Notes: generated from the sequence alone by a model not told the origin. Positions 1 to 15,899 are shown, counted from the first letter of the stretch. The stretch is 64,000 bases of DNA from an uncultured Thermoleophilia bacterium (GCA_963715985.1 CAVQSP010000013.1:1-64000); one strand, 5' to 3'. Made by a program: numbers and translations.

Positions 1-1048
1 GGCGAAGGTGCCGAACAGCTGGTCGTCGAGGTCGTTGCGGTCGGTGAGGACGACCAGCGTGGGGTTCTGCCATCTCCGGGCCGCCGCAATCAGCTTTCCC
101 GAGTAGAAGGCCATTGAGAGGCTCTTGCCGCTGCCCTGCGTGTGCCAGACGACGCCGATGCGGTGGTCGCCCGGGGGTAACGGCGTCTCACTCGTGGCCT
201 GGCCACGGCCTTGTTGACCGCTCCAGTACTGGTGGTAGGCGGCCATTCTTCTTGAGGACGTGTGCGGCCCGTCGACCTCGAAGACGTTGAAGTGCCTCAC
301 GAGGTCGAGAAAGCGATCCTTCTCGAAGATGCCGTTGACGAGGGTCGCCAGCTCCGGCGTGCCCTTCTCTGAGCAGTTCCACCGTGCCGTTGACGGTGCG
401 CCACGGCATGAACCGCTCCCACGGAGCGGTCAGCGTGCCGTGGCGCGCCCCGATGCCGTCGCTCGCCACCAGCAGTTCATTGCAGGTGAACAGGCTCGGC
501 ACGGCCTGCTTGTACGTCTGCAACTGGTGGAACGCCTTCTTGGTGGGTGGCGTTCACGTCGGCTGGGTTCTTCAGCTCGATCACGGCCAGCGGACGCCCG
601 TCGACGAAGACCACGACGTCCGGCCGCTTCTTTTCGTCTTGCCCTCGATGACCGGCGTGGTGGTCGATGGCCAGCCAGTCGTTGGCCTCCAGGTGTTCGT
701 AGTCCACGAGCCAGGCCTTGTCGCCGGCGATGGCTGCCGTCGCGCCGCTGATACTCGACGTCGATGCCGTCGACCAGCATGCGGTGGAAGCGGTGGTTGC
801 TCTCGATGAGGCTCGGCGTGTCGGGGACGAGCGACCTTCTTCAGCGCATCGTCAATGGCGGACGCCGGAAGACCGGGGTTGATGCGCTCGAGCGCGGAGC
901 GCAGACGCCGAGAGAGGACGACTTCGGTGAAGTCTTCACGCTCGGCCGCCAGCTTCTCCGGCTCGACGTCCGGGCCGCAGGCCACCTCGTAGCCGAGTCC
1001 GGCCAGCCATGCCATCGTGGCTTCTTCCATGTGCGACTCGGCGATCAC
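1..1048 (-). CDS. hsdR: Type I restriction enzyme R subunit, N-terminal part (runs off window; several frameshifts)
   Basis: Split ORFs 581-1048, 477-707 and 188-523 give the HsdR N-terminus, the nuclease motif [21 protein letters not shown] and [13 protein letters not shown]. Positions 1-160 read [14 protein letters not shown] and [18 protein letters not shown] (helicase motifs I/Ia). Confidence 0.93.
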
Positions 1049-2066
1049 AGCCCCCGGAAGTCACGAACGCACCTCGCTCGGCGGTGGTGGCCCCATCGGG
1101 CGGCCATCGTACACCCGAGCGGTGACGCTTCAGCGACGCGGTCCGCCACGTCGCCGTCAGAAAGCCGCAGCCACGGCCCACCGGGTGACCACTTCTTCAG
1201 GAACTCGCTGTCGGCCGCCAGGGCTGCCCACGGCTCGAGCACGAAGGCGCGGAGGCGGTCGCCGGCAGTCGCGAGAGCGACCGGCTCCAGCCGGTTCCGC
1301 CGCAGGAAGCCGGCCCAGCGCTGAAGCACGACCTGGTCGCTGGCGAACGCGGGGGTGAGCGGCGCGGGCAGCAGCACAGCGTCAATCGTCCGCTCGCGAC
1401 GTTCGAACGTCAGCCGGATGGCCTCGGCGAGCCTGCGGGCCGTCGAACTCGAGCCTCGCCGCCAGAGCCTCTACGTCGTAGAAGTCCTTCATGCGGCTGT
1501 TCAGCAGGCCGAGGGGGCCATCGCGTGGAGCTTCTCGGCCACGACGGCCTCCGCCGGGTAGGCCAGCAGCCGAGGCGCCGGGAATCGAGCAGCGTCGGCA
1601 GAGCCACCTCTGACCCGAGCGGGAGCGCGTCCCCGAAGCCGATGTTGACCTGCACCCTAACCCGCGCAGTGCCGAGCTTCGCCGCCAGCCGGACCCGCTT
1701 GCCCTGATAGGCCTGCCCCTTGCGGATGTCGCTCACGGCGACGCTGGCCGGATCGTAGGTCATGCCGTCGTCCGGCGCGGAGACGCGGCACAATCCGCAA
1801 ATACGTCTCTCAGCCTCTTGGCCGAGTCCTCACCGAAGCCCAGCAGGTCGATGTCGCGCGTGGCGCGATGCGGGTCTTCCTCCCAGACCGCGAACAGTGT
1901 CGCCCCCTTGAGCATGAAGGAGCGCGAGTGCGGAGCATGCGGAGGCGGTGCAGCAGCCGTTCGACGCGAACTGGGTCAGCGACAGACTGACGTCCTCGCC
2001 GGGCGTACGGGCGACGTTGACGCGCCTGAATGCTGATGCCCCCATGTCGCTCGGCGGCCTGGTCAC
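1045..2066 (-). CDS. abiEii: AbiEii-family nucleotidyltransferase toxin (type IV TA/Abi), frameshifted
   Basis: Fragments give MLKG, YQGKRVRLAAKLGTARVRVQVNIGFGDA, SRMKDFYDV and QRWAGFLRRNRL. Its GTG overlaps the abiEi stop and its stop overlaps the hsdR GTG. Confidence 0.85.
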
Positions 2067-2663
2067 ACCATCGACTCCATATAGGGGCGCATGACGGCGC
2101 CAGCGCGCAGCTGATGCGCGCAGTCCCGCAGCCGGTCGACGTCGCCGGCGCAGCCGGTAGAGTCGCGGAGCGCCTCGAGCGCGACGTCGAAGCCGATCTT
2201 GTTGCGGAAGCGGAAGCAATCGACCACGGTCTTCGCCGGCCCGAACATGCGCACGCACACCATCGATGACGTGCTCCTCGACGCCGGTCGTGAGCGCGAG
2301 GACCGGAGAAGCGCATCACCCGTACTTGCGGCGTCATCACCTTGGGGACACGCGCCTTGCGGTCGATGGCCAGCCACACTTCAAAGGGAAGCTGGGTTGT
2401 CAGGTCGTGGAACTGAAGCGCAGAGAGCAGGCAGATGACTCCGGCGGGTGCCTGTCGCGCGACTTCCGCGAGGCTGTGGTGTTCGGTCCAGTCATCGTCC
2501 ACGGCACTGTAGAGACCGCGTTGCACGCGGTCTCCATGAGTCCGCGTCGCTGGAGCCGGGTGAGCCACATCCTGCTGAACCCGGCTGTCTGGATGTCTGC
2601 CGGCCGAACGGCGCCATGCGCACGAATGAAGGCGAGTACCTCGTCTGACGTATGCTTCGACAC
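2063..2663 (-). CDS. abiEi: AbiEi-family antitoxin / transcriptional regulator, frameshifted
   Basis: N-terminal wHTH (GAVRPADIQTAGFSRMWLTRL..RVQRGLY), then VICLLSALQFHDLTTQLPFEVWLAI and AKTVVDCFRFRNKIGFDVALEALRD. Confidence 0.88.
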
Positions 2664-2672
2664 GCGCTGATT

Positions 2673-2718
2673 GTTACAAAACGTCGGCACTTGTCAATAA
2701 GTGCCGACGAATTGTAAC
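2673..2718 (-). promoter_or_regulatory. abiE promoter/operator: 20-bp inverted repeat around a TTGACA -35 box
   Basis: Arms gttacaaaacgtcggcactt (2673-2692) and aagtgccgacgaattgtaac (2699-2718) pair at 18/20 positions. TTGACA lies on the minus strand at 2697-2692. The repeat is 10 nt upstream of the abiEi GTG; AbiEi proteins are known to bind promoter inverted repeats. Confidence 0.75.
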
Positions 2719-2744
2719 CCGGCAGAGCTGCAATGTGAGCGACC

Positions 2745-2900
2745 TCAGAAGCCGCCTGCCGCCGCCTCCACGGGCAGGAACAACTCGTGCACGCGGTGCC
2801 CGAGCGGTCCCTGCCCCGGGCGCCAGCCCATGCGAGCGTGGAGCCCGTCCAGCACGCTCGCGCGCCAATTGGCTTCGTCGCAGGGGCAGTACACGCCCGA
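2745..2900 (-). pseudogene. Orphan C-terminal fragment resembling the end of the 4220-4981 protein
   Basis: CPCDEANWRASVLDGLHARMGWRPGQGPLGHRVHELFLPV compared with DAGEW..GGLDAMDRWFGRPFAAPIESRLHVLFVPA; protein-level similarity only. Confidence 0.5.
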
Positions 2901-2977
2901 CCGCTCCTCCGCGGCGCGACCACGACGGGCACCACACTGCACGGTCCCCGCAGGAGTGACCGATGCGGGCGTGAGAA

Positions 2978-3492
2978 TCAGGCGAGACTGTCATCCTTGT
3001 CCGGTCGTCTCCGCCGCCCTAGCGTCAGACCGCCCTGCCCATTCTTGTCGCCTCCGACCGCGTCACGCCTCGGTCTGCGCCGAGGAGACTCGATGGCCGT
3101 ATGACCGATTTCCGCACTGTCCACAGAACAACGGATGACGTATCGCCCCGGCGAGCCGAACTGCGGCTGCGCGGGCACCGTGATCTGGAAGCGCTGTGGA
3201 GTCCCGGCGCGCAGACCGGGCGGTCGGCCGACCTCGAACTCGCCACCGACGAGATGCACCACCTCGCCGCCGTCTGCATCAGCACATCGATGCTGAAACG
3301 AGCTTCCGGTTGGTCAAGCTCCACGGCACATCGATACCGACCGCAACGGAAACGGAACAGCCGGCGGTCCGGCAATTGCGGCACCTTGAGACTGTCCCAG
3401 CCTCCGCCGAGCAGGTAGAGCTTGCCGTTCACGACGTCCGCGCTGTCGGCGACGAGAAGGTAGTCCAGGCTGATGCTGTCCAGGTCGCTCAT
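2978..3492 (-). CDS. DUF6941-like protein, frameshifted
   Basis: LDYLLVADSADVVNGKLYLLGGGWD, continuing in another frame as GRPPGLRAGTPQRFQITV..FGSPGRYVIRCSVD. Confidence 0.65.
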
Positions 3493-3513
3493 GGTTTGAC
3501 CTTCTTCGGCCGA

Positions 3514-3532
3514 TGTCATACTTTGTATGACA
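3514..3532. promoter_or_regulatory. Perfect 8-bp palindromic operator between divergent DUF6941 and TA genes
   Basis: tgtcatac-ttt-gtatgaca, AT-rich in a high-GC background. Confidence 0.55.
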
Positions 3533-3561
3533 CATCATACACGCAGACCCGAGGCTGACAA

Positions 3562-3860
3562 GTGGCCGTCGAAGTCCACGCCTCAGCTGGGACGACGAGA
3601 ACGAAGCAGCATATCACCAAGCATGGCGTGACTCCGCGAGGTCAACCAGAAGGTGGAGAACACGCACATCGTGGTGCGCGACCGGCGCAACAGACGCGCG
3701 CCTCTTCTGCTTATCGGTCGTACGCATGGCGGGCGAGTGCTCTGCGTGCCCATCAGGAAGACTAAGAGAACCCGACGTCTGGCGACCAGTCACCGCGCTT
3801 CCCGCGACCGAGGCGCAGACCTCGCTACTCGACAAGAACTCCTGAGGAGAGACCATGGCC
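3562..3860 (+). CDS. BrnT-like toxin, frameshifted
   Basis: Frame pieces WDDEN, HITKHGVT and LLLIGRTHGGRVLCVPI match the BrnT/DUF497 pattern. Confidence 0.55.
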
Positions 3861-4179
3861 AAGCGACGCGACAGTGAGAGCGACTACGAAGTCGTCGGCA
3901 CCGGTGGCGGTGCAGCGCCGGGCGGCATCGTGTCCGTGCGACTCAAGTCTGATGACATGGTATGCTCGTCGCGCTCTCGGAGGTGAGCGGACGTCGCTCT
4001 CCGAGACGCTGCGCCTCGGGTTGCGCTGCCTCGCGGACCAGCCGTCGCGAGCGACGGGTTCAGGAATGCTGAACCTTCGGCTCGACACTCGAGCCTCCGA
4101 GGCCGTGTCCGCTCTTCCGGGACAACCTCAGGAGCCGAGTGAGTCATCGTTGACGCACATCAAGGTCGTCTTGGCGTAG
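3854..4179 (+). CDS. Putative ribbon-helix-helix (CopG-like) antitoxin, frameshifted
   Basis: SD gaggag plus ATG; MAKRRDSESDYEVVG..IVSVRLKSDD then SLSETLRLGLRCL (RHH strand-helix-helix pattern); follows the toxin. Confidence 0.45.
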
Positions 4180-4219: not shown

Positions 4220-4981
4220 TCACCCGCGCTCGCGAGTCGGACCAGCCGCCGGGACGAAGAGCACGTGCAGCCGTGACTCGATGGGGGCCGCGAACGGCCG
4301 CCCGAACCAGCGGTCCATCGCGTCGAGGCCGCCCATTCGGCCCCGGCCCCTGTGCCACTCACCAGCATCATGTGCTGCGTCGGGGAAGTGGTCGTCGCCT
4401 AGGAAGCACAGGTGGAGCAGCCGAGCCTCGATGCCGTGCTCGAGCAAGAACCAGAGCGTCGCCAAGCGGTTGGCGAACTGGTAGTGGCGGGCGAGCCAAT
4501 CACTGCTGTTGCCGGGCGACACGGCGGCCTTGACTTCGTCGAGCCGCTCGCCGATCATCTCGCGAGACCCACCCACAGCTTGAGGCTTGGCGGCGCATGC
4601 TTGGTTAAGCTCTCGCAAGTGGGCCTTCGCCTCGACGAGTAGCCACTCCGGCCCAGCCGGAGTCTCCCGGCGGCCAATGAGGTCCCAGTTGGGAACGTTG
4701 CCGGTCGTCGGCCAGAACTCGGAGCGGTACGCGCGAACGACATCGGGCCGCTCGCTCAAGAGGAAGTCGATGCCACGCCACTCGATCTCGAATGGCGCGC
4801 GCTCGACGGCCCGCCCACCACCGGGACGCGCGGACGCTCCAGCATCGAGCCACTCGAAACCAGGATGGCCGATGCGCGGCTCAGAGGAGTCGGCGACCGC
4901 CAGCGAGAGCCGCTGCGAATCGGACTGCAGCCAGTCCAACAGCCGGCGCTGGCTGCCGTGGGACTTCGCCGGCCTGCTCAC
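4220..4981 (-). CDS. Hypothetical protein with PD-(D/E)xK-like nuclease motif
   Basis: Intact 253-aa ORF; PNWDLIG...WLLVEAKAH (D...ExK) and YQFANRLATL. Confidence 0.65.
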   Translation of the reverse strand: MSRPAKSHGSQRRLLDWLQSDSQRLSLAVADSSEPRIGHPGFEWLDAGASARPGGGRAVERAPFEIEWRGIDFLLSERPDVVRAYRSEFWPTTGNVPNWDLIGRRETPAGPEWLLVEAKAHLRELNQACAAKPQAVGGSREMIGERLDEVKAAVSPGNSSDWLARHYQFANRLATLWFLLEHGIEARLLHLCFLGDDHFPDAAHDAGEWHRGRGRMGGLDAMDRWFGRPFAAPIESRLHVLFVPAAGPTRERG

Positions 4982-5105: not shown

Positions 5106-6053
5106 TCACGACGATTCCGTCTCGTCGTGGTCGTCATCGTCGTCATCTGGTTGGCTCAGGTCGGCTCCGAGCGCGGCGAGCTTCGCATCTTGCCACTGGC
5201 GATAGCTCTGCCCGGTGGCCTCGTCCTTCCAGGCCTTGGGTCCGTTGGTAGCCAGGCCAACGACAACCGACGCGGCCGCGCTCGGGCTGTTGAACGCGAC
5301 GTCTTCCGGGAAGACGAGCAGGTCGAGGTCGCCAGCGTCCGGGATGATCAGGCCGTCGGCGACCATCCGCTCGCGCAGCTTGCGGTACGACTTCCAGGAG
5401 GCTGGGTGCTTCAGCCGGGCCGTGGATCCGGCGAACACCACGAACTGTCCGTCGATCTCCTGCGCCTTCGCCAGGGTACCGACCTTGTCCAGCACGAAGA
5501 CAGGCGACTTCTCCTTCGCTGATGAAGCCTGGTTCGAGGTGGGCTTCGGCTGCGTGAAGTCGAAGCCGAGCACGGGCAGGATCATCTGCACCTCGGCGAG
5601 GAAGGCCTCCATGTCGGCCTCGTCCGGCTCCGGCAGCTTGGTCGGGTCCGGCGCCGTGTCGTTGGTGAGCTTGGCGCGGTGGGCGTCCTGCGCCAGCTTG
5701 ATGAGGCGGCACTCCAGGTACCTCACATGGGACTTGGTGAGGTTCTCGTCCTTGCTCACGATAACGACGGTGCGCTCCCAGAAGTCCTTGGCCTCGCTCT
5801 TGTTGTGGCGAACCAGCCGCTTGAGGACGTTGTCGCCCTCACCGATGTAGGCCAGCGCCCGCGATGGGTCGTCTGGGTCTGGGCCGACGAGCAGGTAGAC
5901 GCCGGTGCGCCGGACCTCCTCCCTCTTGCTGAGCTGGTCGAGCTGCGAGCGCGGCGCGACCAGCACCTTGCCGGTCCAGTTGCTGATCTCGGCGAGGAGG
6001 ATGCCGGTGGGCTCGCCGTCGGCGAGAAAGATGCGGATGGCCTTGCCGGTCAT
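5106..6053 (-). CDS. GIY-YIG nuclease with C-terminal DUF4357 (RAMA-like) domain
   Basis: GVYLLVG...AYIGEGDNVLKRLVRH, YLECRLI and C-terminal FNSPSAAASVVVGLATNGPKAWKD; SD ggag upstream. Confidence 0.9.
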   Translation of the reverse strand: MTGKAIRIFLADGEPTGILLAEISNWTGKVLVAPRSQLDQLSKREEVRRTGVYLLVGPDPDDPSRALAYIGEGDNVLKRLVRHNKSEAKDFWERTVVIVSKDENLTKSHVRYLECRLIKLAQDAHRAKLTNDTAPDPTKLPEPDEADMEAFLAEVQMILPVLGFDFTQPKPTSNQASSAKEKSPVFVLDKVGTLAKAQEIDGQFVVFAGSTARLKHPASWKSYRKLRERMVADGLIIPDAGDLDLLVFPEDVAFNSPSAAASVVVGLATNGPKAWKDEATGQSYRQWQDAKLAALGADLSQPDDDDDDHDETESS

Positions 6054-6090
6054 TGTGAGACTCCCAAGTTAGGGGGACATCCCCATCATC

Positions 6091-6660
6091 CTATCCGGCA
6101 CGGATGTTGGAGAGACCCGCTTCGAAGCGATCCCGGCCGACACCGTCGGGAGTAGCGGCGTCGAAGACGAGAAAGCCGTCCTCCCTGCTGAGAGCGTCCG
6201 CCGCGACCATCTCCAGAATGAGGCGAGCGGTCGACATCACCCGCAGGCCACGGCCTTTCGCAAGACCCGCCCCCCAGCTATCATCCATCAGCACGAGATC
6301 GGCCCCACGATGCTCGGCGATCAGGACCGTCGCGATCTCGCCCGTGTGCGCCCAGGCGTGCTCGCCGATGGCGTGCTTCAGGGCGAGCAAGTTCGCGAAG
6401 TCGGTCTTGAGGGCATCGGGAATCGGCTTGGTCGTCTTTGGCCAGGCGCCTCCGGCCTCACCGGTCTGCGTGCGAAGGTGCGCGGCGAGCGAAGAGAAGG
6501 CGTCTTGTTCAGCAAGCCGCAGCAGCTCGCGTTCGACCTCGCGGGTGATTCGAGCGCGAGAGCCCAAATACTCACGCAGTGCCCCCAAGAGAGAGCACTC
6601 GGCGAACCGGCACAGCGGACTCGCGTCGAGCAGCACAAGTTGCGCCGTGCGTGACAGCAC
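6091..6660 (-). CDS. PIN-domain (VapC/DUF3368-like) protein
   Basis: VLLDASPL, ITREVERELL, HTGEIATV, LVLMDD and RVMSTARL match the PIN acidic pattern. Confidence 0.75.
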   Translation of the reverse strand: MLSRTAQLVLLDASPLCRFAECSLLGALREYLGSRARITREVERELLRLAEQDAFSSLAAHLRTQTGEAGGAWPKTTKPIPDALKTDFANLLALKHAIGEHAWAHTGEIATVLIAEHRGADLVLMDDSWGAGLAKGRGLRVMSTARLILEMVAADALSREDGFLVFDAATPDGVGRDRFEAGLSNIRAG

Positions 6661-6672
6661 TTCTCCACGGCC

Positions 6673-7467
6673 TCAGTAGTCGTTCGCGGTGGCCGGAGCA
6701 ATCGCACCGCGAGCTTCGAATTCCGCGCGTATCCGGGTCTCGTCCACCTGCAGCAACGCAGCGATCTGCTCCACCGACAGCAGACCGCGCTCGTACGCGT
6801 TGACGCCATGGGTAAGCGTCGCGCGCGGCACGCGCGGCAGGTGGCCGCATGCGCGTGCGAGCGTATCGGCGTGAGGCAGAAGACCGAGCCGCTTCGCGAG
6901 CTCGTGATGCTCGCCACGGTCGATGGCCGCCTCGAGAGGCTGGTACTTGCTCTTGCTCAGCCGCCAGACAGCTTGCAGCCTGTACAGGGCAGCCTTGGCA
7001 CTCACGTGGAAGTGGTGCGCCAGGCGGACGACGGTCTCCAGACTCAAGTCGGGGCCGTGCATCAGGCTGATCCAGGTACCCACGCCATCGAGCGGCGCCA
7101 TGAACTCGGCGGCGAACCCGTCGGCCTGCACCTCGCGGGGCGCGCGACGAGAGGAGCCGAGGACGTTGTCCTCGTAGTCGACCGATCCGCAGTGGCCCAT
7201 CTCGATGTGGCCAAGCTCATGCGCAAGAGTGAAGCGTTGCCTTGAGACCGCCTGCGCTCCGTTGAGGAACACGAAGTGCCTGCCCTGCTTGCCGCCCTGC
7301 AGGCCGGCGATGCCTTGGGGCAGGCTCAGGACCGTCACGGGAACGGATGCGAGGTCTTCGACCACCTCGACGATATCGGCGAGCGGAGCCTCGAGACCCA
7401 GACCAAGTGTGGCGCGCGCACGACGAGCCGCTGCGTACCCAAACTCTTGTTCGTCGACGACCGTCAC
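6673..7467 (-). CDS. ImmA/IrrE family Zn metallopeptidase
   Basis: RQRFTLAHELGH (HExxH), EVQADGFAAEFMAP and FHVSAKAALYRL. Confidence 0.92.
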   Translation of the reverse strand: MTVVDEQEFGYAAARRARATLGLGLEAPLADIVEVVEDLASVPVTVLSLPQGIAGLQGGKQGRHFVFLNGAQAVSRQRFTLAHELGHIEMGHCGSVDYEDNVLGSSRRAPREVQADGFAAEFMAPLDGVGTWISLMHGPDLSLETVVRLAHHFHVSAKAALYRLQAVWRLSKSKYQPLEAAIDRGEHHELAKRLGLLPHADTLARACGHLPRVPRATLTHGVNAYERGLLSVEQIAALLQVDETRIRAEFEARGAIAPATANDY

Positions 7468-7784
7468 CGACCGACGGCTTCAAGCTGGAGCATCGCGTCA
7501 ATGAGCTCGGAGCACCGAGCGACGGTCTCACGAGCGACCTCGTCGTCCGCGCCGCCTCGCATCGCGAAGGCCGGCTGCTCGTCGAACAGGAGGTCCTCGA
7601 CGCTTACACCGAGGTAGTCGGCGATGTCCGCGATCTCGGACATGTTGAAGGCCCGCTCGCCGGCGAGCGCGCGACTCAGCACCGACGGCTGCAGCGCGAT
7701 CGCATCCGCCAATTCGCGCTGCGATCGTGAACCCAAGGCCTCGAGGATGCGCTTGCCGACCTCGATGTCGGAACGAATCTTCAC
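7464..7784 (-). CDS. XRE-family HTH transcriptional regulator
   Basis: SQRELADAIALQPSVLSRALAGERAFNMSEIADIADYLGVSVEDLL; GTGA overlap with the peptidase gene. Confidence 0.88.
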   Translation of the reverse strand: MKIRSDIEVGKRILEALGSRSQRELADAIALQPSVLSRALAGERAFNMSEIADIADYLGVSVEDLLFDEQPAFAMRGGADDEVARETVARCSELIDAMLQLEAVGR

Positions 7785-7978
7785 GGGTGCCCTCCCACGC
7801 TGGTGACGTTGTTATTATCGCACGCTAGAGCGCATCTTCAACAGTAGTCTTGCGGTTTACGACTGACTGGACTCGCCAACCACGGGGCACTCAGCCGACC
7901 AGGAGGCCCAGGACCACCGACGTCGGGAGGTCACGCCGCGGTGGGCAAGCCTCTCAGCACAGGCAGCGAAGGGGACGG

Positions 7979-8256
7979 ACGACGGTGCGCTCCCAGAAGT
8001 CCTTGGCCTCGTTCCAGCTCCGGCGGAGCAGCGGCTTGAGGACGTTGTCGCCCTCGCCGATGGAGGCCGGCGCCCGCAACGGGTCATCCGGGTCGGGACC
8101 GACGAGCAGGTGGACGCCGGTGCGCCGGACCTCCTCCCTCTTGCTGCGCTGGTCGAGCTGGGAGCGCGGCGCGACCAGCACCTTGCCGGTCCAGTTGCTG
8201 ATCTCGGCGAGGAGGATGCCGGTGGGCTCGCGGTCGGCGAGGAAGATGCGGATGGC
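7979..8256 (-). repeat. Truncated copy 2 of the GIY-YIG gene 5' end
   Basis: Colinear with 5764-6041; translates AIRIFLADREPTGILLAEISNWTGKVLVAPRSQLDQ...DFWERTVV; no native ATG. Confidence 0.95.
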
Positions 8257-8290
8257 GCTTGAAGGCCCTCCGACGAACCGCTCGCGACGC

Positions 8291-8920
8291 CTACGCGCGC
8301 TCAAGCTGGTTCAGATGCGGGCGCAGGTCCAGCGACCCCCAGCACTTGGCGGCCAGCTCGCGGCTTCGAGGCGGAAAGCCCGCGGGCAGGACCTTTCGGC
8401 CTTCGCCGCCGAGGAACTCCACGGCCGGGACGAAGTCGCGGTCGGACAAGACGAGGATGGCCCAGTCGTGCGGGTCTTCCCAGGCAAGCTTGATCATGTC
8501 GGTGGCGATAGCCACATCGACGCCTTTCTCCTCGGTGAGCCCTGGGGCGCCGAGCAGTGACAGCAGATGCCGACAGGGCGATGGCAACTCTGGCACACGG
8601 GCGGTGCTTCTTGACCAATCCTTAAGCACGACAGAGACGCCGGCGACCCTGTCGAGGAACCGCGTTGCCCACTCGCGCAGCCTGACGTCGCTGGCGCCGT
8701 TGCCGACGGCAGATAGACCGTGCAACCCTCGAACTGGAGATCGCTCGCGGCGACGCCGGAGATCATCGCGGCAGCTTCGACACCGAGCCACCGGGAGAGG
8801 GTGTTCCAGTCCGGTCTGAAGTTCCTCCAGCACATCGTTGGCGCTGAGCTGGAAGTTCCAGAAGTCGACGAACACACGGACTCGCTGAAGGCGCACGATC
8901 GGTCCTTCTCGGGTGCCCAC
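8291..8920 (-). CDS. NYN-domain (LabA/DUF88, PIN-like) ribonuclease, internal frameshifts
   Basis: VRVFVDFWNFQL, EEKGVDVAIATDMI and ILVLSDRDFVPAVEFL; SD gaggagg before the GTG. Confidence 0.85.
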   Translation of the reverse strand: MGTREGPIVRLQRVRVFVDFWNFQLSANDVLEELQTGLEHPLPVARCRSCRDDLRRRRERSPVRGLHGLSAVGNGASDVRLREWATRFLDRVAGVSVVLKDWSRSTARVPELPSPCRHLLSLLGAPGLTEEKGVDVAIATDMIKLAWEDPHDWAILVLSDRDFVPAVEFLGGEGRKVLPAGFPPRSRELAAKCWGSLDLRPHLNQLERA

Positions 8921-9202
8921 CGTCACCTCCTCGGTCGACAATGACCCCAGAACGCAGACAGGGAGCCCGAAGGCTCCCTGGCGTTCTAGTAACGAGCGTC
9001 GACCCGACCGGGTCGCGCGGCGCTCGTGGGTCTGCAGTGCAGGGAGTGTGCCCGATTCCCTGTGCCGGTCAATCGCCGCGCGGTCGTGGGGAGGGTCACA
9101 TTGACCGTCGCGATGGTCGAGAAGCCAACTGCGTCTGGCCGAATCATCTGCGGCACAGACGAACGTCACCTGCCGTCGATGGCGGTCGCGCACGGCAAAG
9201 TC

Positions 9203-9490
9203 ACGACGACGCTGCGCTCCCAGAATCCTTGGCCTCATCCCAGCTCCGGCAGAGCAGCCGCTTGAGGACGTTGTCGCCCTCGCCGAGCGAGGCCAGCGCC
9301 CGTGACGGGTCGTCCGGGTGGGGACCGACGAGCAGGGAGACGCCGGTGCGCCGGACCTCCTCCCTCTTGCTGAGCTGGTCGAGCTGGGAGCGCGGCGCGA
9401 CCAGCACCTTGCCGGTCCAGTCGCTGATCTCGGCGAGGAGGATGCCGGTGGGCTCGCCGTCGGCGAGGAAGATGCGGATGGTCTTGCCGG
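9203..9490 (-). repeat. Truncated copy 3 of the GIY-YIG gene 5' end
   Basis: Colinear with ~5760-6050; GKTIRIFLADGEPTGILLAEISDWTGKVLVAPRSQLDQLSKREEVRRTGVSLL. Confidence 0.95.
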
Positions 9491-9588
9491 CGACCCGCAC
9501 AAATGTCCACCTGTGCGGACGTGGCTCCGACAGCTCCCCTGTGTATGCTCGCTCCCATGCCGCGCACGAAGCGACTCCTCCCCGTCAC

Positions 9589-9616
9589 TTGCCAATCATA
9601 ACTTGTGAGTTATGAT
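9589..9616 (+). promoter_or_regulatory. TAC operon operator/promoter with perfect 9-bp inverted repeat
   Basis: atcataact-tgtg-agttatgat at 9595-9616; TTGCCA (9589) - 16 nt - TATGAT (9611); overlaps the toxin start. Confidence 0.6.
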
Positions 9617-10019
9617 GAAGCTGCGGTACGTTCAGCGCGGCATATGGACGATCCTGGCCATCTGCGACGATCGCGGCGGCTGCCCGGTGCAGGAGTTCAT
9701 CGACCGCCTCGAGACCACCAGCCAGTCGGACTACGATCAGGTCATGGCCCAGCTGGGTTGGGCGGCCGTGAATGGCCCGCCAAGAAGCGACAAGAAGTCG
9801 CGGCCCCTCGCGGACAAGATCTTCGAGCTCAAGACCAGAGCCGGCATCCGCATCCCGTACTTCTATGATCAGGACCGCTTTGTCATCTGCACAGAAGCTC
9901 TAAGAAAGCCGAAGAAGACCGAATTGCGCGCCGTGATCGCACGAGCGCTCGCGACGCGCGAACGATACTTCGAAGCCAAGCGCCGCGGGGCCGTCGAGAT
10001 GATGCAGGAGGAATCGTGA
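9612..10019 (+). CDS. RelE/HigB-family toxin of a TAC module
   Basis: CPVQEFIDRL, KSRPLADKIFELKTRAGIRIPYFY and KPKKTELRAVIARA. Confidence 0.85.
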   Translation: MMKLRYVQRGIWTILAICDDRGGCPVQEFIDRLETTSQSDYDQVMAQLGWAAVNGPPRSDKKSRPLADKIFELKTRAGIRIPYFYDQDRFVICTEALRKPKKTELRAVIARALATRERYFEAKRRGAVEMMQEES

Positions 10020-10480
10020 GCACCAGATCGTTCAGGGAGCTGTTCGCTGAGGCCGAGAGGCACCCCGACTTCCACAAGGAGCTGGCGATCCTTGAGTTCA
10101 CCGAGGAGCTCTCGCGCGTGATGCAGGACAAGGGTGTCTCGGGCACAGAGCTGGGGCGCCGCATCGGCAGCTCGCAGGCTTACATCTCGCGCGTGCTCAG
10201 CGGGGGCGCGAACTTCACGCTCGGCAGCATGACCAAGCTGGCGATGGCGCTCGGCATGGAGCTGAAGATGCACCTCGCGCCCGCCCGTGCCGCCACCGCG
10301 TGGCGGGACTTCTACCCCGCCGCCACAGTGACCGACGCGGGCGCCAGAGTCATCGAAGTTAGTTTCGCCCAGACCTCCAGAGAATCGGCACGCTTCGCCG
10401 CGGCGGCCACCACGCCGCATGGCACACTCGCGATCACGGACGAGGGAATGAGGGATGGCGCAGCCGCCTCTGCAGCTTGA
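10016..10480 (+). CDS. HigA-like HTH antitoxin with C-terminal extension (putative chaperone-addiction tail)
   Basis: MQDKGVSGTELGRRIGSSQAYISRVLSGGANFTLGSMTKLAMALG plus a ~60-aa tail; GTGA coupling to the toxin. Confidence 0.85.
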   Translation: MSTRSFRELFAEAERHPDFHKELAILEFTEELSRVMQDKGVSGTELGRRIGSSQAYISRVLSGGANFTLGSMTKLAMALGMELKMHLAPARAATAWRDFYPAATVTDAGARVIEVSFAQTSRESARFAAAATTPHGTLAITDEGMRDGAAASAA

Positions 10481-10883
10481 GGAGTCCTACTTCGACGTCG
10501 TCAGCGTGGAGGCTGCCGCGGAGTACGCCCCCGACGCCGAAGCGCGACCGCGGCGCCACGGGGTCCAGATGCAGCTCGGGCTCGCCACGGTCGACGACAG
10601 CCCCGGCGTCTGGCGAGTGTCGCTGGACATCAGACACAAGGACATCGACGAAGAGGCGCCGCGCTACCGCTTTCGCCTGCGCATCGTCGGCTTCTTCCGC
10701 TGGTGTTCCGAGGAGCAGCCTGAGGACGAGGTAGCGCGTATCGTCGCCGTCAACGGAGCGTCGATCCTCTACTCCTCGGCGCGCGAGTATCTGCTGATGA
10801 TCACGAGCCGAGCGCCGTGGGGCCAGCTCAGTCTGCCGACCATGAACTTCTCTGATGTGGCGGTGACACCAGCGTCAGAGTGA
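10455..10883 (+). CDS. SecB-like chaperone of a TAC module
   Basis: PLQLEESYF, YRFRLRIVGFF and VNGASILYSSAREYLLMITSRAPWGQLSLPTMNF (SecB C-terminal pattern). Confidence 0.85.
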   Translation: MAQPPLQLEESYFDVVSVEAAAEYAPDAEARPRRHGVQMQLGLATVDDSPGVWRVSLDIRHKDIDEEAPRYRFRLRIVGFFRWCSEEQPEDEVARIVAVNGASILYSSAREYLLMITSRAPWGQLSLPTMNFSDVAVTPASE

Positions 10884-11008
10884 CGCCGTCAGCCGTCGGC
10901 AGCAGCTTGGTCGGCTTCGGAGAGCGAGCGGCCTCGGCGTCTTCGTACGGTCATGAAGCCGCCTTCGGGCCTGAGAAGCGCCGTGGACGAACGCCACAGA
11001 GCGGTGCG

Positions 11009-11280
11009 TGGGACTCGGCGAGGTTCTCGTTCTCGTCGTGGCGTAGCACGCGCATGAGGACGTTGTCGCCCTCGCCGATGGAGGCCAGCGCCCGCGACGG
11101 GTCGTCCGGGTCGGGGCCGATAAGCAGGTAGAGGCCGGTGCGCCGGACCTCCTCCCTCTTGCTGAGCTGGTCGAGCTGGGAGCGCGACGCGACCAGCACC
11201 TTGCCGGTCGAGTTGCTGATCTCGGCGAGGAGGATGCCGGTGGGCTCACCGTCGGCGAGGAAGATGCGGATGGTTCTGCC
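11009..11280 (-). repeat. Truncated copy 4 of the GIY-YIG gene 5' end, with internal deletion
   Basis: Homologous to ~5805-6048, then jumps to ~5727-5747 (ENL..SH); starts just after the AlbA_2 stop. Confidence 0.92.
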
Positions 11281-11292
11281 TGTGGGCGCTGC

Positions 11293-12739
11293 TCAGACCT
11301 CCTCGGACGCCCTGTCCCACCTATCCTCCAGGGGGTGGCCTATCGCCCTGTAGGCCACGGAAATCAAGCGGAGCGTCACGGCATTGGCATCCGCACCCTC
11401 TGAGACAAGATGATCCAGCACGCCCAGCGCGCGCAGGGCGTCAATCGCAATCTCGATCGAGGATGGAACGATTGGTCTGCTTGGCGCTGCTTTTCGCCAG
11501 TCCTTTGGTTCGGTGCGCAAGAGGGTGTCCGGTTCCATGCCGGGAGGCACCAGGATTGACGACTCCTCGATGAACGGCAGTCCGAATCTCCTGATTCCGT
11601 CAATGTAGTCGCTGGTGTCGACGTAGGGAATGCGACGCCACATGTTCCCGAAACGCATCTTGACGAAGACAGGCGGCCGCACCCGCTCGCGCTCCAACAG
11701 TGTCCGATGCTTGGCCATGAACCCAACGAGCAGCAGCATCAGGTAGTTGACGTCGATGACATGCGCCCCCACTGCAGCCCTCTCGGGCTGAAGCAGCTCG
11801 AGAAACGCCGACGTATGCTCGTAGTGGGAGAGGCCCTGACGCAGTTCGCCATGGTCGTCTGTGACCGGCCAACCGTTGATTGGCGCCGTCACCAATGTGG
11901 AGCAGTCGGGGCGGTAGGCGAGACTGGGAAGAAGCACGTAGGGCGTGTTGCCCGTAGTCATTCGAGCCACGTAGGAATCGCCCACCTGGTAGGTGCTGTC
12001 CAAGCGGATGTCGAGTAGATTCGCCTCGCTCGTCGACTCCATGACCTGACGAAACTCTCCAAAGCTGATCTTGGACTTCATGCCTCGTTCTCCGAAGGGA
12101 TCGGCCAACAAGAAGAGCTGCGCGTAGCTCAAGTTGTTCTCCGAGTCACTCAGCCTGGGGGTTTCCGACAGCCGTTCGGAGAGACGGAGCCGCTCTCTCC
12201 GACCTCGCTCCCAGAGCATGTCCAGTCGGGCGCGGTCAGTCTCAAGGACAGGGTCTGATTCATCAGCTTTTGCGCCGGTACACAAGGCCTCTACTGTGAA
12301 TGTAGGGGGCGTCGTGGCCGAATGGAACGAGAACCACCACAACGGCCCGATCGCTGGACAGCCCAATCTCGCTGCAAGGGCCTCTAAGCGTTCTGACCTC
12401 GTAGAACGGCGTCGGAGTGACGTGGTGATTTGCGGCAGTGCGGATATCGTTGCGGAGGGCGGCCACGCTGGTCAGAGATACTCCGTTGAATGAGCCCGCG
12501 CGTTTCTCGCCGTCGACCTCGTCTTCATCTATGCCGTAGAAGAGCCATCCGCCCTCGCTGTTGGCGAAGGCGCTGATGGACATGGCAATCCCCAGTTTGC
12601 CATTGGACTCCCGCTTGTACTCGACCCACCATCCCTCTGGCACCCCTCGCAGCGCAGCGAGATCACGGGGTCTCAGTCTCGCAAGGGCTCTGCGAAATGG
12701 ACTGAATCGAACCCCACTTGAAGAACCCTCACCAGTCAC
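11293..12739 (-). CDS. AlbA_2 (Schlafen-like) domain protein, one frameshift near 12270
   Basis: EGWWVEYKRE..ISAFANSEGGWLFYGIDE..APYIHSRGLVYRR, continuing into ORF 11293-12366; overlaps the hsdS stop; visibly lower GC. Confidence 0.8.
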
Positions 12740-14000
12740 TGGGGCCTCCCAGGGGGAGCGGAGCCTTGAGAAGCCTGGGCATGATGGTGTCGCGCGTCGA
12801 AACGAGCAGGCGCGATGTCGTGTCGTTCCTGGCTAGAATCTGCAGCACGGGCGCGAGGATCGTCTCAAACGCTTCGATCACGCTCGGCGGTGGCACGATA
12901 ACGCGAAGCTCTCTGAAATCCTTGCTGTTGATGGATCCGAAGACGGTTCCGCCTGACTCGAAGTCGTCGAATCGTCGCCTCAGCGAGCGCATCATCTCGT
13001 ATGTGTAGGCCGTGGCGCCGGACACGTGTCGAACTGCCGCCAGTCCGCGACCGATGCAGCATTCTTCACGGGCCATGTTGACATCACCCACAGGTGCGCG
13101 CACCGATACGAGCGTGTCGCCTGATCGGGCGCAACGGGAGGGTGCCACGCAATAGACCCGGCGCGTAGGGTAACGACGGCCGAAGTCCCGACGACCTTGG
13201 TAGAACGGCAGCCCCCGGCCGGCCTCATTGTAGGTACTTCCCGGCGGAGACTGTCCCATCGTGATCATGAAGCTCTCGTGACATGGACCGACGTGCCAGC
13301 CCAGGGGAACTTCGTCGTCCCCAACAGCGGTCAGAGTCGATGGGAAGAGGGCGGCGAGGTCGGGCGGTAGCCCGACCTCGCCGCCCTCCATCTTCTTGCG
13401 CACAGGGTCAAAGTCGATGAACCAAGACCCGAAGATGGCGCGGGCGATCGACTCGAGGGTGCGGTTCATGCGGCGGTTGAGTTCGATCCTGTCGTCCAGA
13501 GCACGAAGGGCCGATGTTGCCTTGTCGCGCTCGTGCCTGTCGGGAAGCGGAATGGGCAACTCGCGAAGGTCCTGCAGGTTCAGCGTCGCCTGCACGGTGG
13601 TCGTAGCGCGGGTGCGCATATGGTGCCGTAGCGTCGGACTCCTGAGAACATAGGCAATCCAGTCTGCCCCGATGTCATCGCGCACTGGTACGACGGCCAC
13701 AGCGCGTGCGACGTTTCAGCCCCGGAGACCAACGGGTACGACGGCGGTCTCGCCGAGAGATCCGACCAGCGAGACCAGGACCTCTCCGCCGCGGAGGCGC
13801 GTACGACCGTACCTAGCCTCAACATCGGCGGCGACTCGTTTGACGTCGTCAGTCACTATGCGTCCGTCTTGCAGGTTGTTGACGCGGATGATTGGCACTC
13901 CCTCTTCGCACAGATAGCCGGGCTGAACGATACCGTAGGTGATTCCGCGCTCGTCGACGAGGTCGCCCAGTCGGACTTCGGGCCAGTCGTCAGAGCTCAT
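12729..14000 (-). CDS. hsdS: Type I R-M specificity subunit, frameshift near 13715
   Basis: [59 protein letters not shown] and RDTIMPRLL. Confidence 0.93.
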
Positions 14001-15614
14001 AGCCCAACCGGCCGAGGTTCGCTCTGATGACCTGCTCCAGCCTTGACGACTCGGCGAATTGCTCGCGCGAGTTCCGACGTCAGCCGCTCCATCTTCTTGT
14101 CGAACGGCTCGACGTCGTCTTCGGCGTCGGCGGCGCCGACGTAGCGGCCGGGCGTCAGGACGTAACCGTGCTCGGCAATGCGCTCGGTCGTCGCGCTCGC
14201 GCAGAATCCGGGCACGTCGGCGTAGCCGGACGTGCCCGGCTCGCTCCGCTTCGCCGCGCCACGCGTGATACGTCCCGGCGATGCGCGCGATGTCCTCGTC
14301 ACTCAGCTCCTTGTGCGTGCGGTCGACGAGGGCGCCCATCTGGCGCGCGTCGATGAACAGCGTCTCGCGACGGCGGTCGCGGCAGCGGCCGCCGCTCCCC
14401 GGTCCGTCGCCCTTGTCGCGCGCCAGGAACCACAGGCACACGGGGATCTGCGTCTGGTAGAAGAGCTGGCCGGGCAGGGCGATCATGCAGTCGACGAGGT
14501 CGGCCTCCACGAGCTGCTTGCGGATCTCGCCCTCCCCGCTCTGCTGCGAGCTCATCGAGCCGTTGGCGAGCACGAAGCCGGCCACGCCCTGCGGCGCCAG
14601 GTGGTGGACCATGTGCTGCACCCAGGCGAAGTTGGCGTTGCCCGCCGGCGGCGGGCCGTACTTCCAGCGCACGTCATCGCGCAGGCGGTCGCCGCCCCAG
14701 TCGCTCACGTTGAAGGGCGGGTTGGCGAGGATGAAGTCGGCCTTGAGGTCCAGGTGCTGGTCGGCGTGGAAGGTGTCGGCGTTGTGCGGCCCCAGGTCGC
14801 CCTCGAGCCCGCGGATGGCGAGGTTCATCTTGGCGAGGCGCCAAGTGGTGGGGTTGCTCTCCTGTCCGTAGATGGCGATGTCGCCGAGGCGGCCGCCGTG
14901 CTCCTCCACGAAGCGCTCGCTCTGCACGAACATGCCGCCGGAGCCGCAGCAGGGGTCGTAGACGCGGCCCTCGTAGGGCTCGATCATCTCGACCAGCAGC
15001 TTGACCACGCAGCGCGGCGTGTAGAACTCGCCGCCGCCCTTGCCCTCGGCGCTGGCGAAGCGCCCGAGGAAGTACTCGTAGACGCGCCCGAGGATGTCCT
15101 TCGAGCGACTGTCCTCGTCACCCATGGCGATCGTGCCGATGAGGTCGATGAGCTCGCCGAGCTGCGTCTTGTCGATGTCCGGGCGCGCGTAGTTCTTGCT
15201 GAGCACGCCCTTGAACTGCGGGTTCTCGCGCTCGATGGCGACCATGGCGTCGTCGATCGTCTTGCCGATCTCGGGCTGGCGCGCACCGGCCTGCAGGTGC
15301 TCCCAGCGCGCCTCGCGCGGCACCCAGAAGACGTTGTCGGCGCGGTACTCGTCGCGGTCCTCGGGGTCGAGGCCGGACTCGCCGGGGCCGCCGGCCGCAA
15401 GACTCGTGGCGGCCTCCGCCTCGGCCTCCGCAACCAGGGCCGAGTGCTTCTCCTCGAAGGCGTCCGAGATGTACTTGAGGAAGATGAGGCCGAGCACCAC
15501 ATGCTTGTACTCGGCCGGGTCCATGTGGCCGCGCATCTTGTCGGCCGCGGCCCACAGCTTCTGCTCGAAGCCGAGGGGCTCGTTGCCGTTGGTGGTCTTC
15601 CTACTCCGTGCCAT
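13997..15614 (-). CDS. hsdM: Type I R-M N6-adenine methyltransferase, C-terminal frameshifts
   Basis: [52 protein letters not shown]; C-terminal [10 protein letters not shown] in ORF 13997-14302. Confidence 0.96.
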
Positions 15615-15899
15615 AGCCCACAGGTGCTTGTGCGAGTGTTGCCATGTGCCCCTCCACGAGTGTGTTGGTTGGCATTGTAGTCCCCGGGTCGGACGGTCGG
15701 GTGACGATCAGGGGCTCGGCGCCGTGTTCCGTCTGTGCCGTCTTGGGAGAGAATCCGCACGAGGAGGGTGTCGGACGGCCGTGGACGGCCGCCCGCGGGC
15801 CGACGAGGAGGAGCGAGATGGGCAGCACGTCGGGTGCCAAGGGACCGAGCGGCGAGGGCGGCGCGTCCGCGAAGAAGGCGCCGAAGGTGACGCCGCGAT

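Follow-up and report, generated by a model that had tools for sequence, protein, structure and literature searches.

Truncated heads of a candidate defence nuclease gene bound cassettes within a type I restriction-modification locus of an uncultured Thermoleophilia bacterium

Between the hsdS and hsdR genes of a type I restriction-modification (R-M) locus in an uncultured Thermoleophilia bacterium, we describe a serial array of gene cassettes whose boundaries carry truncated 5' ends ("heads") of one gene, predicted to encode a 315-amino-acid (aa) GIY-YIG/DUF4357 nuclease. The 11.7 kb between hsdS and hsdR consists entirely of cargo. The sequence analysed, here called the window, is the stretch of 64,000 nucleotides (nt) at GCA_963715985.1 CAVQSP010000013.1:1-64000 (contig C13 of genome G000), from a metagenome-assembled genome (MAG) of 4.35 Mb in 22 contigs that is 88.8% complete with 7.3% contamination. 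Across related loci, head sequence is tied to the cassette downstream of it and not to the one upstream. A preliminary description, made from the window sequence alone, had drawn attention to the array; it missed both the embedding in a type I R-M locus and the status of the intact gene as the PADLOC defence candidate PDC-S14. Positions below are counted from the first letter of the window, and q denotes the nucleotide position in the 315-aa nuclease gene, counted from its start codon.

Gene heads at the cassette boundaries

A repeat search of the window identified one family of four direct copies of 278 nt, at 5764-6041 (reference), 7979-8256 (92% identity), 9205-9482 (85%), and 10997-11274 (85%), in agreement to within a few bases with the four-copy array first described. 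The repeated unit is the first ~250 to 290 nt of the GIY-YIG/DUF4357 gene, and its copies are 85 to 92% alike. One copy lies inside the intact gene; the other three are truncated at the 3' side. When the intact gene was compared with the whole assembly by blastn, these four sites were the only matches apart from one 38-nt match at chance level. The elements of the array are as follows.

5106..6053, minus strand: intact 315-aa GIY-YIG/DUF4357 gene, PADLOC candidate PDC-S14
5764-6053, minus strand: copy 1, the first 290 nt of the intact gene
6091..7784, minus strand: XRE-ImmA-PIN-like cassette (XRE, 7464-7784; ImmA/IrrE metalloprotease, 6673-7467; 189-aa protein, 6091-6660)
7979..8261, minus strand: copy 2, q9-290, with a 1-nt insertion near its start; junction class A
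8291..9100, minus strand: NYN cassette (Pfam NYN, E = 7e-11; start codon uncertain)
9206..9490, minus strand: copy 3, q5-290, with a 1-nt deletion near q270 and no start codon
9612..10883, plus strand: toxin-antitoxin-chaperone (TAC) cassette (HigB/Gp49-like, 9612-10019; HTH antitoxin, 10016-10480; SecB-like chaperone, 10455-10883)
11009..11283, minus strand: copy 4, about q5-261 plus about q319-345, with no start codon

In gene direction, the order of the whole locus is hsdM, hsdS, AlbA_2, [head 4 + TAC], [head 3 + NYN], [head 2 + XRE-ImmA-PIN-like], intact gene, a 253-aa open reading frame (ORF), gene remnants, and hsdR.

Alignment of the four copies placed the start of homology of the three truncated ones at q5-14 (about codons 2 to 5), bearing out the earlier remark that all copies begin within a few codons of the gene start, and detected no conserved sequence upstream of the start codon. 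Copies 2 and 3 share the end point q290 (DFWERTVV) and a common five-site variant at q248-256 (LLxRSWxE), both of which had been noticed before. Copy 4 carries a 57-nt internal deletion between short repeats, passing from q261 to about q319 and continuing to about q345. Several of these junctions recur elsewhere: the junction class of copy 4 is also present in loci L092, L110, and L148; that downstream of copy 2 in L085, L095, L101, and L112, with a deleted form in genome G019; and the 26 nt that follow q290 in copy 3 are also found in the copy of genome G067. The class A junction precedes an XRE cassette at every locus where it occurs. The copies had been interpreted as real cassette boundaries, and these comparisons uphold that interpretation.

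The cassettes in the window are each flanked by direct repeats of 248 to 290 nt, and pairs of copies share runs of 37 to 70 identical bases, which are usable RecA substrates. Since the copies differ by 8 to 15%, they derive from different alleles and are not in situ duplications, in support of the serial integration first proposed. GC content at third codon positions is 0.88 to 0.98 in the heads, like that of core genes; the lower values of the cassettes (0.74 to 0.85) suggest import. No match to Phage_integrase, Resolvase, or RVT_1 was found on contig C13, consistent with the reported lack of an integrase, a search that did not extend to DDE transposases over the whole window. Elsewhere in the genome, seven tyrosine recombinases, no serine recombinase, and one reverse transcriptase were detected, the tyrosine recombinases all on other contigs.

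The cassettes between the heads consist of intact ORFs with lengths as in relatives. Pfam families Gp49, HTH_3, and SecB on three overlapping ORFs mark the TAC cassette as a toxin-antitoxin-chaperone operon with a HigB-type toxin, an HTH antitoxin, and a SecB-like chaperone, the last with a weak TIGR00809 secB match (30 bits versus a cut-off of 103). It aligns at 93.4% nt identity over 1,409 nt in L104 and L110. The XRE-ImmA pair was assigned by Pfam HTH_3 and Peptidase_M78 and by PADLOC PDC-M69A/B, and the cassette recurs at six other loci (86 to 89% nt identity over 1.87 to 1.91 kb). Its 189-aa protein has no Pfam or NCBIfam match; by protein-language-model features, a lead and not an alignment, it lies nearest to clusters annotated as "PIN domain-containing protein/DUF3368" (0.96; 30 of 30 matches), and its AlphaFold2 (AF2) model is too poor to use (predicted local distance difference test score [pLDDT], 45). 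The NYN cassette and both of its junctions (8262-9205) have no counterpart in about 100 related loci, and no other part of the array lacks independent support. In short contigs of relatives from four public sequencing runs, the 5' end of the unit adjoins several different sequences. Contigs from three public runs also join TAC to the unit at about q229, passing from 10901 to 11058 with 7 other letters instead of 156 nt, a further junction variant of this module.

Arrays in related genomes and the composition of the module

Within the genus, 53 other genomes were compared with the 290-nt unit, and 5 of them contain matches (87 to 97% nt identity over at least 60 nt), mostly in multiple copies; the remaining genus matches were shorter than 60 nt and at chance level, and full-length homologs within the genus reached only 37 to 43% protein identity. 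These arrays all occupy one conserved locus, hsdM-hsdS ... hsdR-dnaE-hisS, and the cargo that they carry is different.

G033: head with AlbA_2-HATPase_c_4, then head with AbiEi/AbiEii; no intact gene
G067: XRE-ImmA-PIN-like, head, divergent "type-2" GIY gene
G019: four heads of 44 to 261 nt; cargo AlbA_2, DUF488, AbiE, and DUF3800
G070 and G005: heads on both sides of a cassette of a 262-aa gene and DUF488

An exact 21-nt pattern from the unit retrieved two more arrays in other Actinomycetota/Thermoleophilia MAGs (one beside SIR2 and GmrSD genes), a 76%-identical full-length gene, and 78 metagenome loci. The hsdS-hsdR layout is shared by the five genus genomes G033, G019, G070, G067, and G005, by L061 and L063, and by 22 annotated metagenome contigs, on which 135 ORFs were annotated and type I R-M flanks again observed. 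Cargo on the metagenome contigs is of the kinds usual in defence islands and includes AAA_13, UvrD, HEPN, TIR, deaminase, Fic, BrnT, DUF3800, DUF488, AbiE, TAC, and XRE-ImmA, and several cassette ORFs belong to no known family. Among about 230 ORFs around the arrays, no Phage_integrase, Resolvase, or RVT_1 match was found, only four insertion sequence (IS) transposases. Pooled over all sources, 90 copies were collected at 84% identity or more, with multi-copy arrays at seven other genome loci and two or three copies on at least 14 metagenome contigs. The metagenome contigs are partly near-duplicates from related samples (53 long copies reduce to 47 distinct sequences), so that copy counts overstate independence. 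Comparison of the unit with related genomes, which the preliminary description had put forward as a check, thus shows that copy number and cargo vary. The same description had the gene restored downstream, which fails in at least one relative, G033, where no intact gene follows the array. In a phylum sample of 401 evenly chosen genomes, the gene was present in 23 and several N-terminal-only pieces were present in the genome of the window alone; the arrays are therefore a trait of this lineage and not of the gene family. Locus L144 carries a single intact gene with no fragments.

The two edges of the heads differ in character. Among copies not cut by a contig end, the 5' edge lies at q1-2 in 68 of 88 and at or before q5 in 75, whereas the 3' edge falls anywhere from q40 to q402 in 75 of 78 copies (the other 3 being full length), with modes at q287-293 (19 copies), q227-236 (9), q66-69 (6), q261 (5), and q348 (5). 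Because the search pattern itself lies at q17-37, the edges were recounted on secondary copies in multi-copy loci only: the 5' edge is at q1-5 in 18 of 25 such copies, at q6-18 in 3, and further into the gene in 4, and all 20 with a visible 3' end are truncated. The flanks are diverse, with 49 classes among 81 upstream flanks and 43 among 72 downstream flanks, and every downstream junction class has one fixed end point. In the upstream flanks, positions -1 to -4 show no conservation, and a G-rich, Shine-Dalgarno (SD)-like signal is present at -12 to -8 in 29 of 49 contexts versus 9 of 49 control windows. A co-directional ORF ends within 60 nt upstream in 26 of 44 contexts, and the unit's own TGA (q2-4) serves as the stop codon of six unrelated ORFs. 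Three AlbA_2-to-unit junctions differ by independent deletions, each of which has its right end at or close to q1. Retention of native upstream sequence was rejected as the cause of the 5' edge, with 1 of 47 non-hairpin contexts scoring above shuffled controls.

At the 3' side, many end points are secondary deletions, and on this point the interpretation first offered does not hold in the form given. The heads before AlbA_2-HATPase cassettes end at q287, q236-242, or q44, and the spacers shorten in step; the q66 head of G070 is fused to the middle of AbiEi; and both copy 4 and the G019 copy G019_d have lost internal stretches by deletion at microhomologies. Heads of only 40 to 69 nt persist at cassette boundaries. 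Two units are themselves split: at L147:4914-7054 a cassette lies between head q2-236 and a piece q183-238 (54-nt target duplication), and at L061:9987-11193 a cassette lies between q2-218 and q204-327 (15-nt target duplication). Both are textbook cases of "insertion with long target duplication" inside the gene head.

To ask what travels with what, identity between heads was compared by context for the 53 copies reaching q216.

Same downstream junction, different upstream context (33 pairs): 94.7% over q5-100, 94.1% over q101-216
Same upstream context only (17 pairs): 92.3% over q5-100, 91.8% over q101-216
Background (845 pairs): 91.9% over q5-100, 91.0% over q101-216

The linkage of head sequence is thus with the cassette downstream, not with the one upstream, which defines the module as [head + downstream cassette]. 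The travelling unit had earlier been proposed to be a cassette with a replacement 5' end; the linkage points instead to a truncated head with the cassette that follows it, the two being the same object if the module is a circle. Modules occur in many combinations. The A-head + XRE module has at least five different upstream neighbours (among them NYN, HATPase_c_4, DUF7014, an IS, and a hairpin element) and seven different downstream neighbours, including the intact gene (G000), head + AbiEi (L095), another head (L112 and L096), head + divergent GIY gene (G067), hsdR (L085), and DUF488 (L101). TAC is followed by head + NYN in G000 and by head + AbiE in L104, and the E-type head precedes TAC in G000 and DUF3800 in G019.

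Exchange also appears to have taken place within the unit. The five-site patch at q248-256 is found on many backgrounds, and two single junction classes carry it in 3 of 5 and 3 of 6 copies, a distribution that recurrent point mutation cannot yield and that calls for conversion or crossover inside the unit. Third-position identity of the full-length genes of L144 and L130 to the gene of the window is 0.885 and 0.896, respectively, over q1-290, falling to 0.76 and 0.81 over q291-600 and to 0.58 and 0.48 over q601-900. Across loci, the gene head evolves in concert. That the 5' end is replaced, as originally suggested, agrees with the finding that similarity between the full-length genes of different loci is much higher in the head than in the remainder, even at third positions, which fits repeated overwriting. 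The full-length PDC-S14 genes compared with window positions 5106-6053 were those of L144, L130, L088, and L105, and a steep 5'-to-3' divergence gradient was observed.

In relatives, an element of ~72 nt with a 17-bp inverted repeat lies just upstream (about 20 nt) of about 19 of 81 copies. Its arms are of the TTATGA...TCATAA type, two stem pairs show compensatory GC-to-CG changes, and hybrids with a left arm of one type and a right arm of another were found in L122, L148, and L146. A covariance model gave at least 25 matches in related loci (examples are L112:2665-2736, L053:1647-1718, and L053:5123-5193) and none in the window or its genome. The stop codon of an AlbA_2/HATPase_c_4 regulator gene is often where the hairpin begins. 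The hairpin was considered as the exchange site and rejected, being also found before type-2 GIY genes and after HATPase_c_4 genes and being absent from the window and its genome; it is probably the native regulatory region of the PDC-S14 gene. Relative to L104 and L110, copy 3 of the window has undergone an upstream deletion of ~115 nt that took both its start codon and the hairpin element.

How the arrays may have formed

The explanation that we prefer is that homologous recombination between gene heads, together with deletions, builds and reshuffles the arrays, a proposal to which we attach roughly even confidence. Exchange would be of the RecA type: either linear DNA entering from related loci would recombine by a double crossover, or [head + cassette] circles would loop out and reintegrate. 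Each junction between the 3' end of a head and a cassette would have been made once, by a rare illegitimate event, and redundant heads would later be trimmed by deletion. The shared gene heads would in this way provide portable homology between genomes. Recombination between heads accounts for the absence of a recombinase, the fixed end points, the reshuffling of modules, the q248-256 patch, and the divergence gradient.

Several observations weigh against this explanation. It leaves the ~45 upstream junctions at the start codon and the one-sided linkage without a cause: homologous recombination moves junctions and does not create them, yet 68 of 88 copies begin at the start codon. The 5' part of the head is unlinked to the upstream context (17 pairs), a linkage that crossovers spread along the unit should have produced. 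RecA efficiency is reduced by divergence of 8 to 10%. In a permutation test of the pairwise homoplasy index (PHI) type over q5-216, 19% of site pairs were incompatible and the result was not significant (0.212 versus 0.193 permuted, p = 0.90). Identity between copies within a locus (0.929, 12 pairs) is about the same as that between loci (0.920, 1,366 pairs) and thus gives no sign of recent conversion within arrays. The copies are not independent of one another, the 53 long ones representing 47 distinct sequences. Finally, excision, circles, and alternative alleles are without read support, the best public run having matched at most 0.09 of words.

The start-codon edge and the one-sided linkage speak for a second explanation, which we regard as possible but rather unlikely: site-specific or nuclease-initiated one-sided exchange at the start of the PDC-S14 gene. 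Its first ~40 bases would be an attachment site, with either the nuclease or the product of a gene located elsewhere acting on it, and [head + cassette] would then correspond to the cassettes of integrons or to dif modules. The remainder of the head would be dispensable and would decay from its 3' side. Such exchange would fit the sharpness of the edge in about 45 unrelated contexts with positions -1 to -4 unconserved, and the ascertainment-corrected copies, which keep the 5' end in 21 of 25 cases and lack the 3' end in 20 of 20. It would also fit the linkage of the whole head to downstream and not upstream sequence, the three independent AlbA_2-to-unit deletions that stop at about q1, and the retention of 40- to 69-nt heads at cassette boundaries. 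However, no recombinase gene lies in or beside the loci examined, and the left side is unconserved, although tyrosine and serine recombinases require a binding arm to either side of the crossover. The three truncated copies of the window lack q1-4 to q1-13 and would be dead sites with ragged 5' ends. The divergence gradient and the q248-256 patch require recombination within the unit, and the excess of SD-like signals suggests that selection on translation accounts for part of the edge. In the most novel form of this explanation, which we consider doubtful, the array would represent a recombinase-free or trans-served defence-cassette system with an attachment site of ~40 bases, where DNA would be cut or exchanged precisely at the start codon and the nuclease might be the agent. 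Type I R-M operons would then house mobile cassettes made of whatever DNA lies between two heads, a functional counterpart of integrons that works on a different principle.

Passive decay appears improbable. According to this explanation, an ancestral island of several full PDC-S14 genes and their neighbours has been whittled down by lineage-specific deletions with no ongoing exchange, as the secondary deletions among the 3' ends (the AlbA_2-HATPase heads and the q66 head of G070), the microhomology deletions in copy 4 and G019_d, and the pseudogene-rich locus of the window might suggest. It is contradicted by the non-collinear orders of modules seen for the A-head + XRE module, the E-type head, and the neighbours of TAC. 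Copies within a locus are moreover as diverged as copies between species, and the third-position GC content of the cassettes, below that of core genes and heads, suggests import.

An assembly artefact, in which strain variants with one cassette each were chained into a false array, is very improbable: the genome is a MAG of 22 contigs with 7.3% contamination, the short contigs of G005 break inside repeats, and the two NYN junctions have no independent support, but the copies are 8 to 15% apart with unique flanks and are not collapsed repeats, a passage from about q290 straight into a cassette presupposes a genuine junction molecule, seven further genome loci and 14 or more metagenome contigs carry multi-copy arrays, and four of the six window junctions (head 4-TAC, TAC-head, head 2-XRE, and PIN-like-gene) recur in independent assemblies, which makes a chimera unlikely.

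The nuclease gene, its surroundings, and known systems

PADLOC PDC-S14 matches the whole 315-aa protein (E = 7e-119). The only Pfam match is DUF4357, in the C-terminal half (E = 7e-15); no curated GIY-YIG sequence model matches, and NCBIfam and PDB sequence searches were empty. In 17 full-length homologs from fetched loci, G51, Y53, Y69, G71, R79, H83, E114, and N131 are invariant, which are the classical residues of the GIY-YIG superfamily (the GIY and YIG motifs, Arg, catalytic Glu, and Asn). The AF2 model (pLDDT, 79.6) points in the same direction: aa 34-133 superpose on UvrC GIY-YIG domains with Z scores of 6.3 to 6.5 (root mean square deviation, 2.3 to 2.6 Å; 81 to 84 of about 90 residues), and Foldseek gave probabilities of 0.87 to 0.96 (E = 0.05 to 0.07) for UvrC domains. 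The top structural match of the model was a plant glutaredoxin N-terminal domain (Z = 8.1). The Z values are middling, and motif and modelled fold agree on a predicted GIY-YIG domain. The top whole-protein Foldseek matches were rejected as spurious (TM score, 0.1). The DUF4357 half, which may be the DNA-recognition module of the nuclease, aligns in the model (window 5169-5525, aa 177-295) with the DNA-binding domain of mouse MPND (Z = 6.3 to 6.4; 72 to 74 residues). Ending no later than about codon 101, the truncated heads are missing E114 and N131 and cannot give rise to an active nuclease. A distant paralog of the N-terminal half (40% aa identity over residues 5-172) lies at G000:C10:304305-304808.

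The surroundings of the array contain the following features.

1..1045, minus strand: 5' third of hsdR, cut by the contig start; frame change near 380
1171..4149: frameshifted remnants (AbiEii, 1171-1921; AbiEi, 2066-2690; C-terminal piece of the 254-aa protein, 2754-2927; DUF6941, 3025-3519)
3562-4149, plus strand: frameshifted remnant of a BrnT/110-aa pair
4220..4981, minus strand: 253-aa ORF of no known family, directly after the intact nuclease gene
11293..12739, minus strand: AlbA_2/Schlafen-type gene (Pfam SLFN_AlbA_2), the first cargo gene after hsdS; frameshift near 12266
12756-14000, minus strand: hsdS (Pfam Methylase_S), in-frame stop near 13716
About 13993-15650, minus strand: hsdM (Pfam N6_Mtase and HsdM_N; 85 to 90% nt identity to relatives), two frameshifts at 14030-14254

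Together, hsdS and hsdM span 12729..15650, which PADLOC calls as type I. The hsdR fragment is 80 to 83% identical (nt) to five relatives and was traced in two frames by tblastn with a relative's HsdR. The AlbA_2 gene matches an intact 480-aa homolog at 63 to 74% aa identity in two frames. The remnants were identified by tblastn with proteins of relatives, each over two to three frames, and by a partial Pfam DUF6941 match. The 253-aa ORF has no match in Pfam, PADLOC, or NCBIfam; it is 31% identical (aa) over its whole length to a 254-aa protein at the same position in the fragment-free locus L144. The broken hsd genes, AlbA_2 gene, and remnants reflect either real decay or indel errors in a long-read MAG, and we favour real decay because intact cassettes stand beside broken genes within 15 kb.

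Defence genes within type I R-M operons are established, as exemplified by PrrC, Campylobacter Rlo, and TgvAB of Vibrio cholerae VPI-2 (PMC11411939), and further candidates have been proposed through "guilt-by-embedding" (Payne et al. 2024, bioRxiv 10.1101/2024.01.29.577857). The locus studied here resembles these cases in that its cargo lies between hsdM/hsdS and hsdR, its intact gene is a PADLOC candidate, and the cargo families of the arrays are of the usual kinds (AbiE, Fic, AlbA_2, and AAA_13, with GmrSD nearby). It differs in stacking up to three or four cassettes whose boundaries carry the truncated head of one embedded gene. In their accessible parts, neither of these two sources gives a mechanism of exchange, and the accessible text of Payne et al. 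does not contain the words "recombination," "truncated," "hotspot," "GIY-YIG," or "DUF4357." In the portions of the literature that were accessible, PDC-S14 appears in the system lists of three papers only. No truncated gene heads at cassette boundaries were encountered in the literature on DUF4357/GIY-YIG, PDC-S14, R-M-embedded defence, and truncated gene copies in defence islands, a search that did not cover subscription journals and supplements, nor did the literature searched describe how the defence slots of type I R-M, BREX, and DISARM operons are filled and exchanged. The boundaries described here bear a readable record: the tag travels with its cassette and links loci across species and environmental samples. 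If recombination between heads is the cause, a short piece of a conserved gene would suffice to make neighbouring genes exchangeable without an integrase; this would be a simple route to the turnover of defence islands, and searches for gene-head repeats could reveal new defence cargo. If instead the exchange is a site-specific cut at the start codon, the arrays would be a new kind of cassette system.

The closest structural precedent is insertion with long target duplication. R-M units without mobility genes, flanked by direct target repeats of 46 to about 420 bp, are described in the accessible text of Furuta, Abe, and Kobayashi (2010; PMC2853133), who propose that such units are cyclically inserted, amplified by way of the repeats, and released again. 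The window likewise has no mobility genes and has direct repeats of more than 30 bp, and the repeated sequence is single copy at the empty site L144. As far as that text goes, its repeats are near-identical (417 of 423, for example) and bound single insertions of R-M cargo, whereas the repeats here are serial and 85 to 92% alike, the target is reused, the cargo is of toxin-antitoxin (TA) or defence type, and the edge almost always lies at a start codon.

Orphan Rhs/CdiA arrays (PMC3967940, from the part accessible) share with the present arrays modules headed by a fragment of a conserved gene that gives homology to a full-length copy, with no dedicated recombinase. There, the fragment is a 3' piece of the core joined in frame to a new toxin domain, and recombination alters the expressed protein, whereas here the fragments are unfused 5' heads and the cargo consists of independent genes. 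We take the two to be of mirror-image polarity. The dif modules of Acinetobacter, as described in the available portions of PMC6449649 and PMC13141974, likewise form arrays of small modules, TA pairs among them, which encode no recombinase and are shuffled between replicons by a trans-acting host function; their borders are 28-bp XerC/XerD sites whose orientation alternates, in contrast to the 40- to 350-nt direct coding repeats found here.

Integrons consist of serial cassettes bounded by a repeated element, and arrays can occur without a nearby integrase, as in clusters of attC sites lacking integrases (CALINs). The array was first called integron-like, which stands as an analogy; it does not extend to kinship, there being no IntI and the repeat being coding sequence. 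Contig C13 has 0 Phage_integrase matches, compared with 7 above the cut-off on other contigs, and the repeat is the 5' coding sequence of a gene and not an attC hairpin, a comparison made without running an attC model. Integron cassettes are promoterless and in one orientation; here TAC lies on the opposite strand and cassettes carry their own HTH regulators. The array can be seen as a variant of these known kinds, with an unexplained feature, the edge at the start codon, that could set it further apart.

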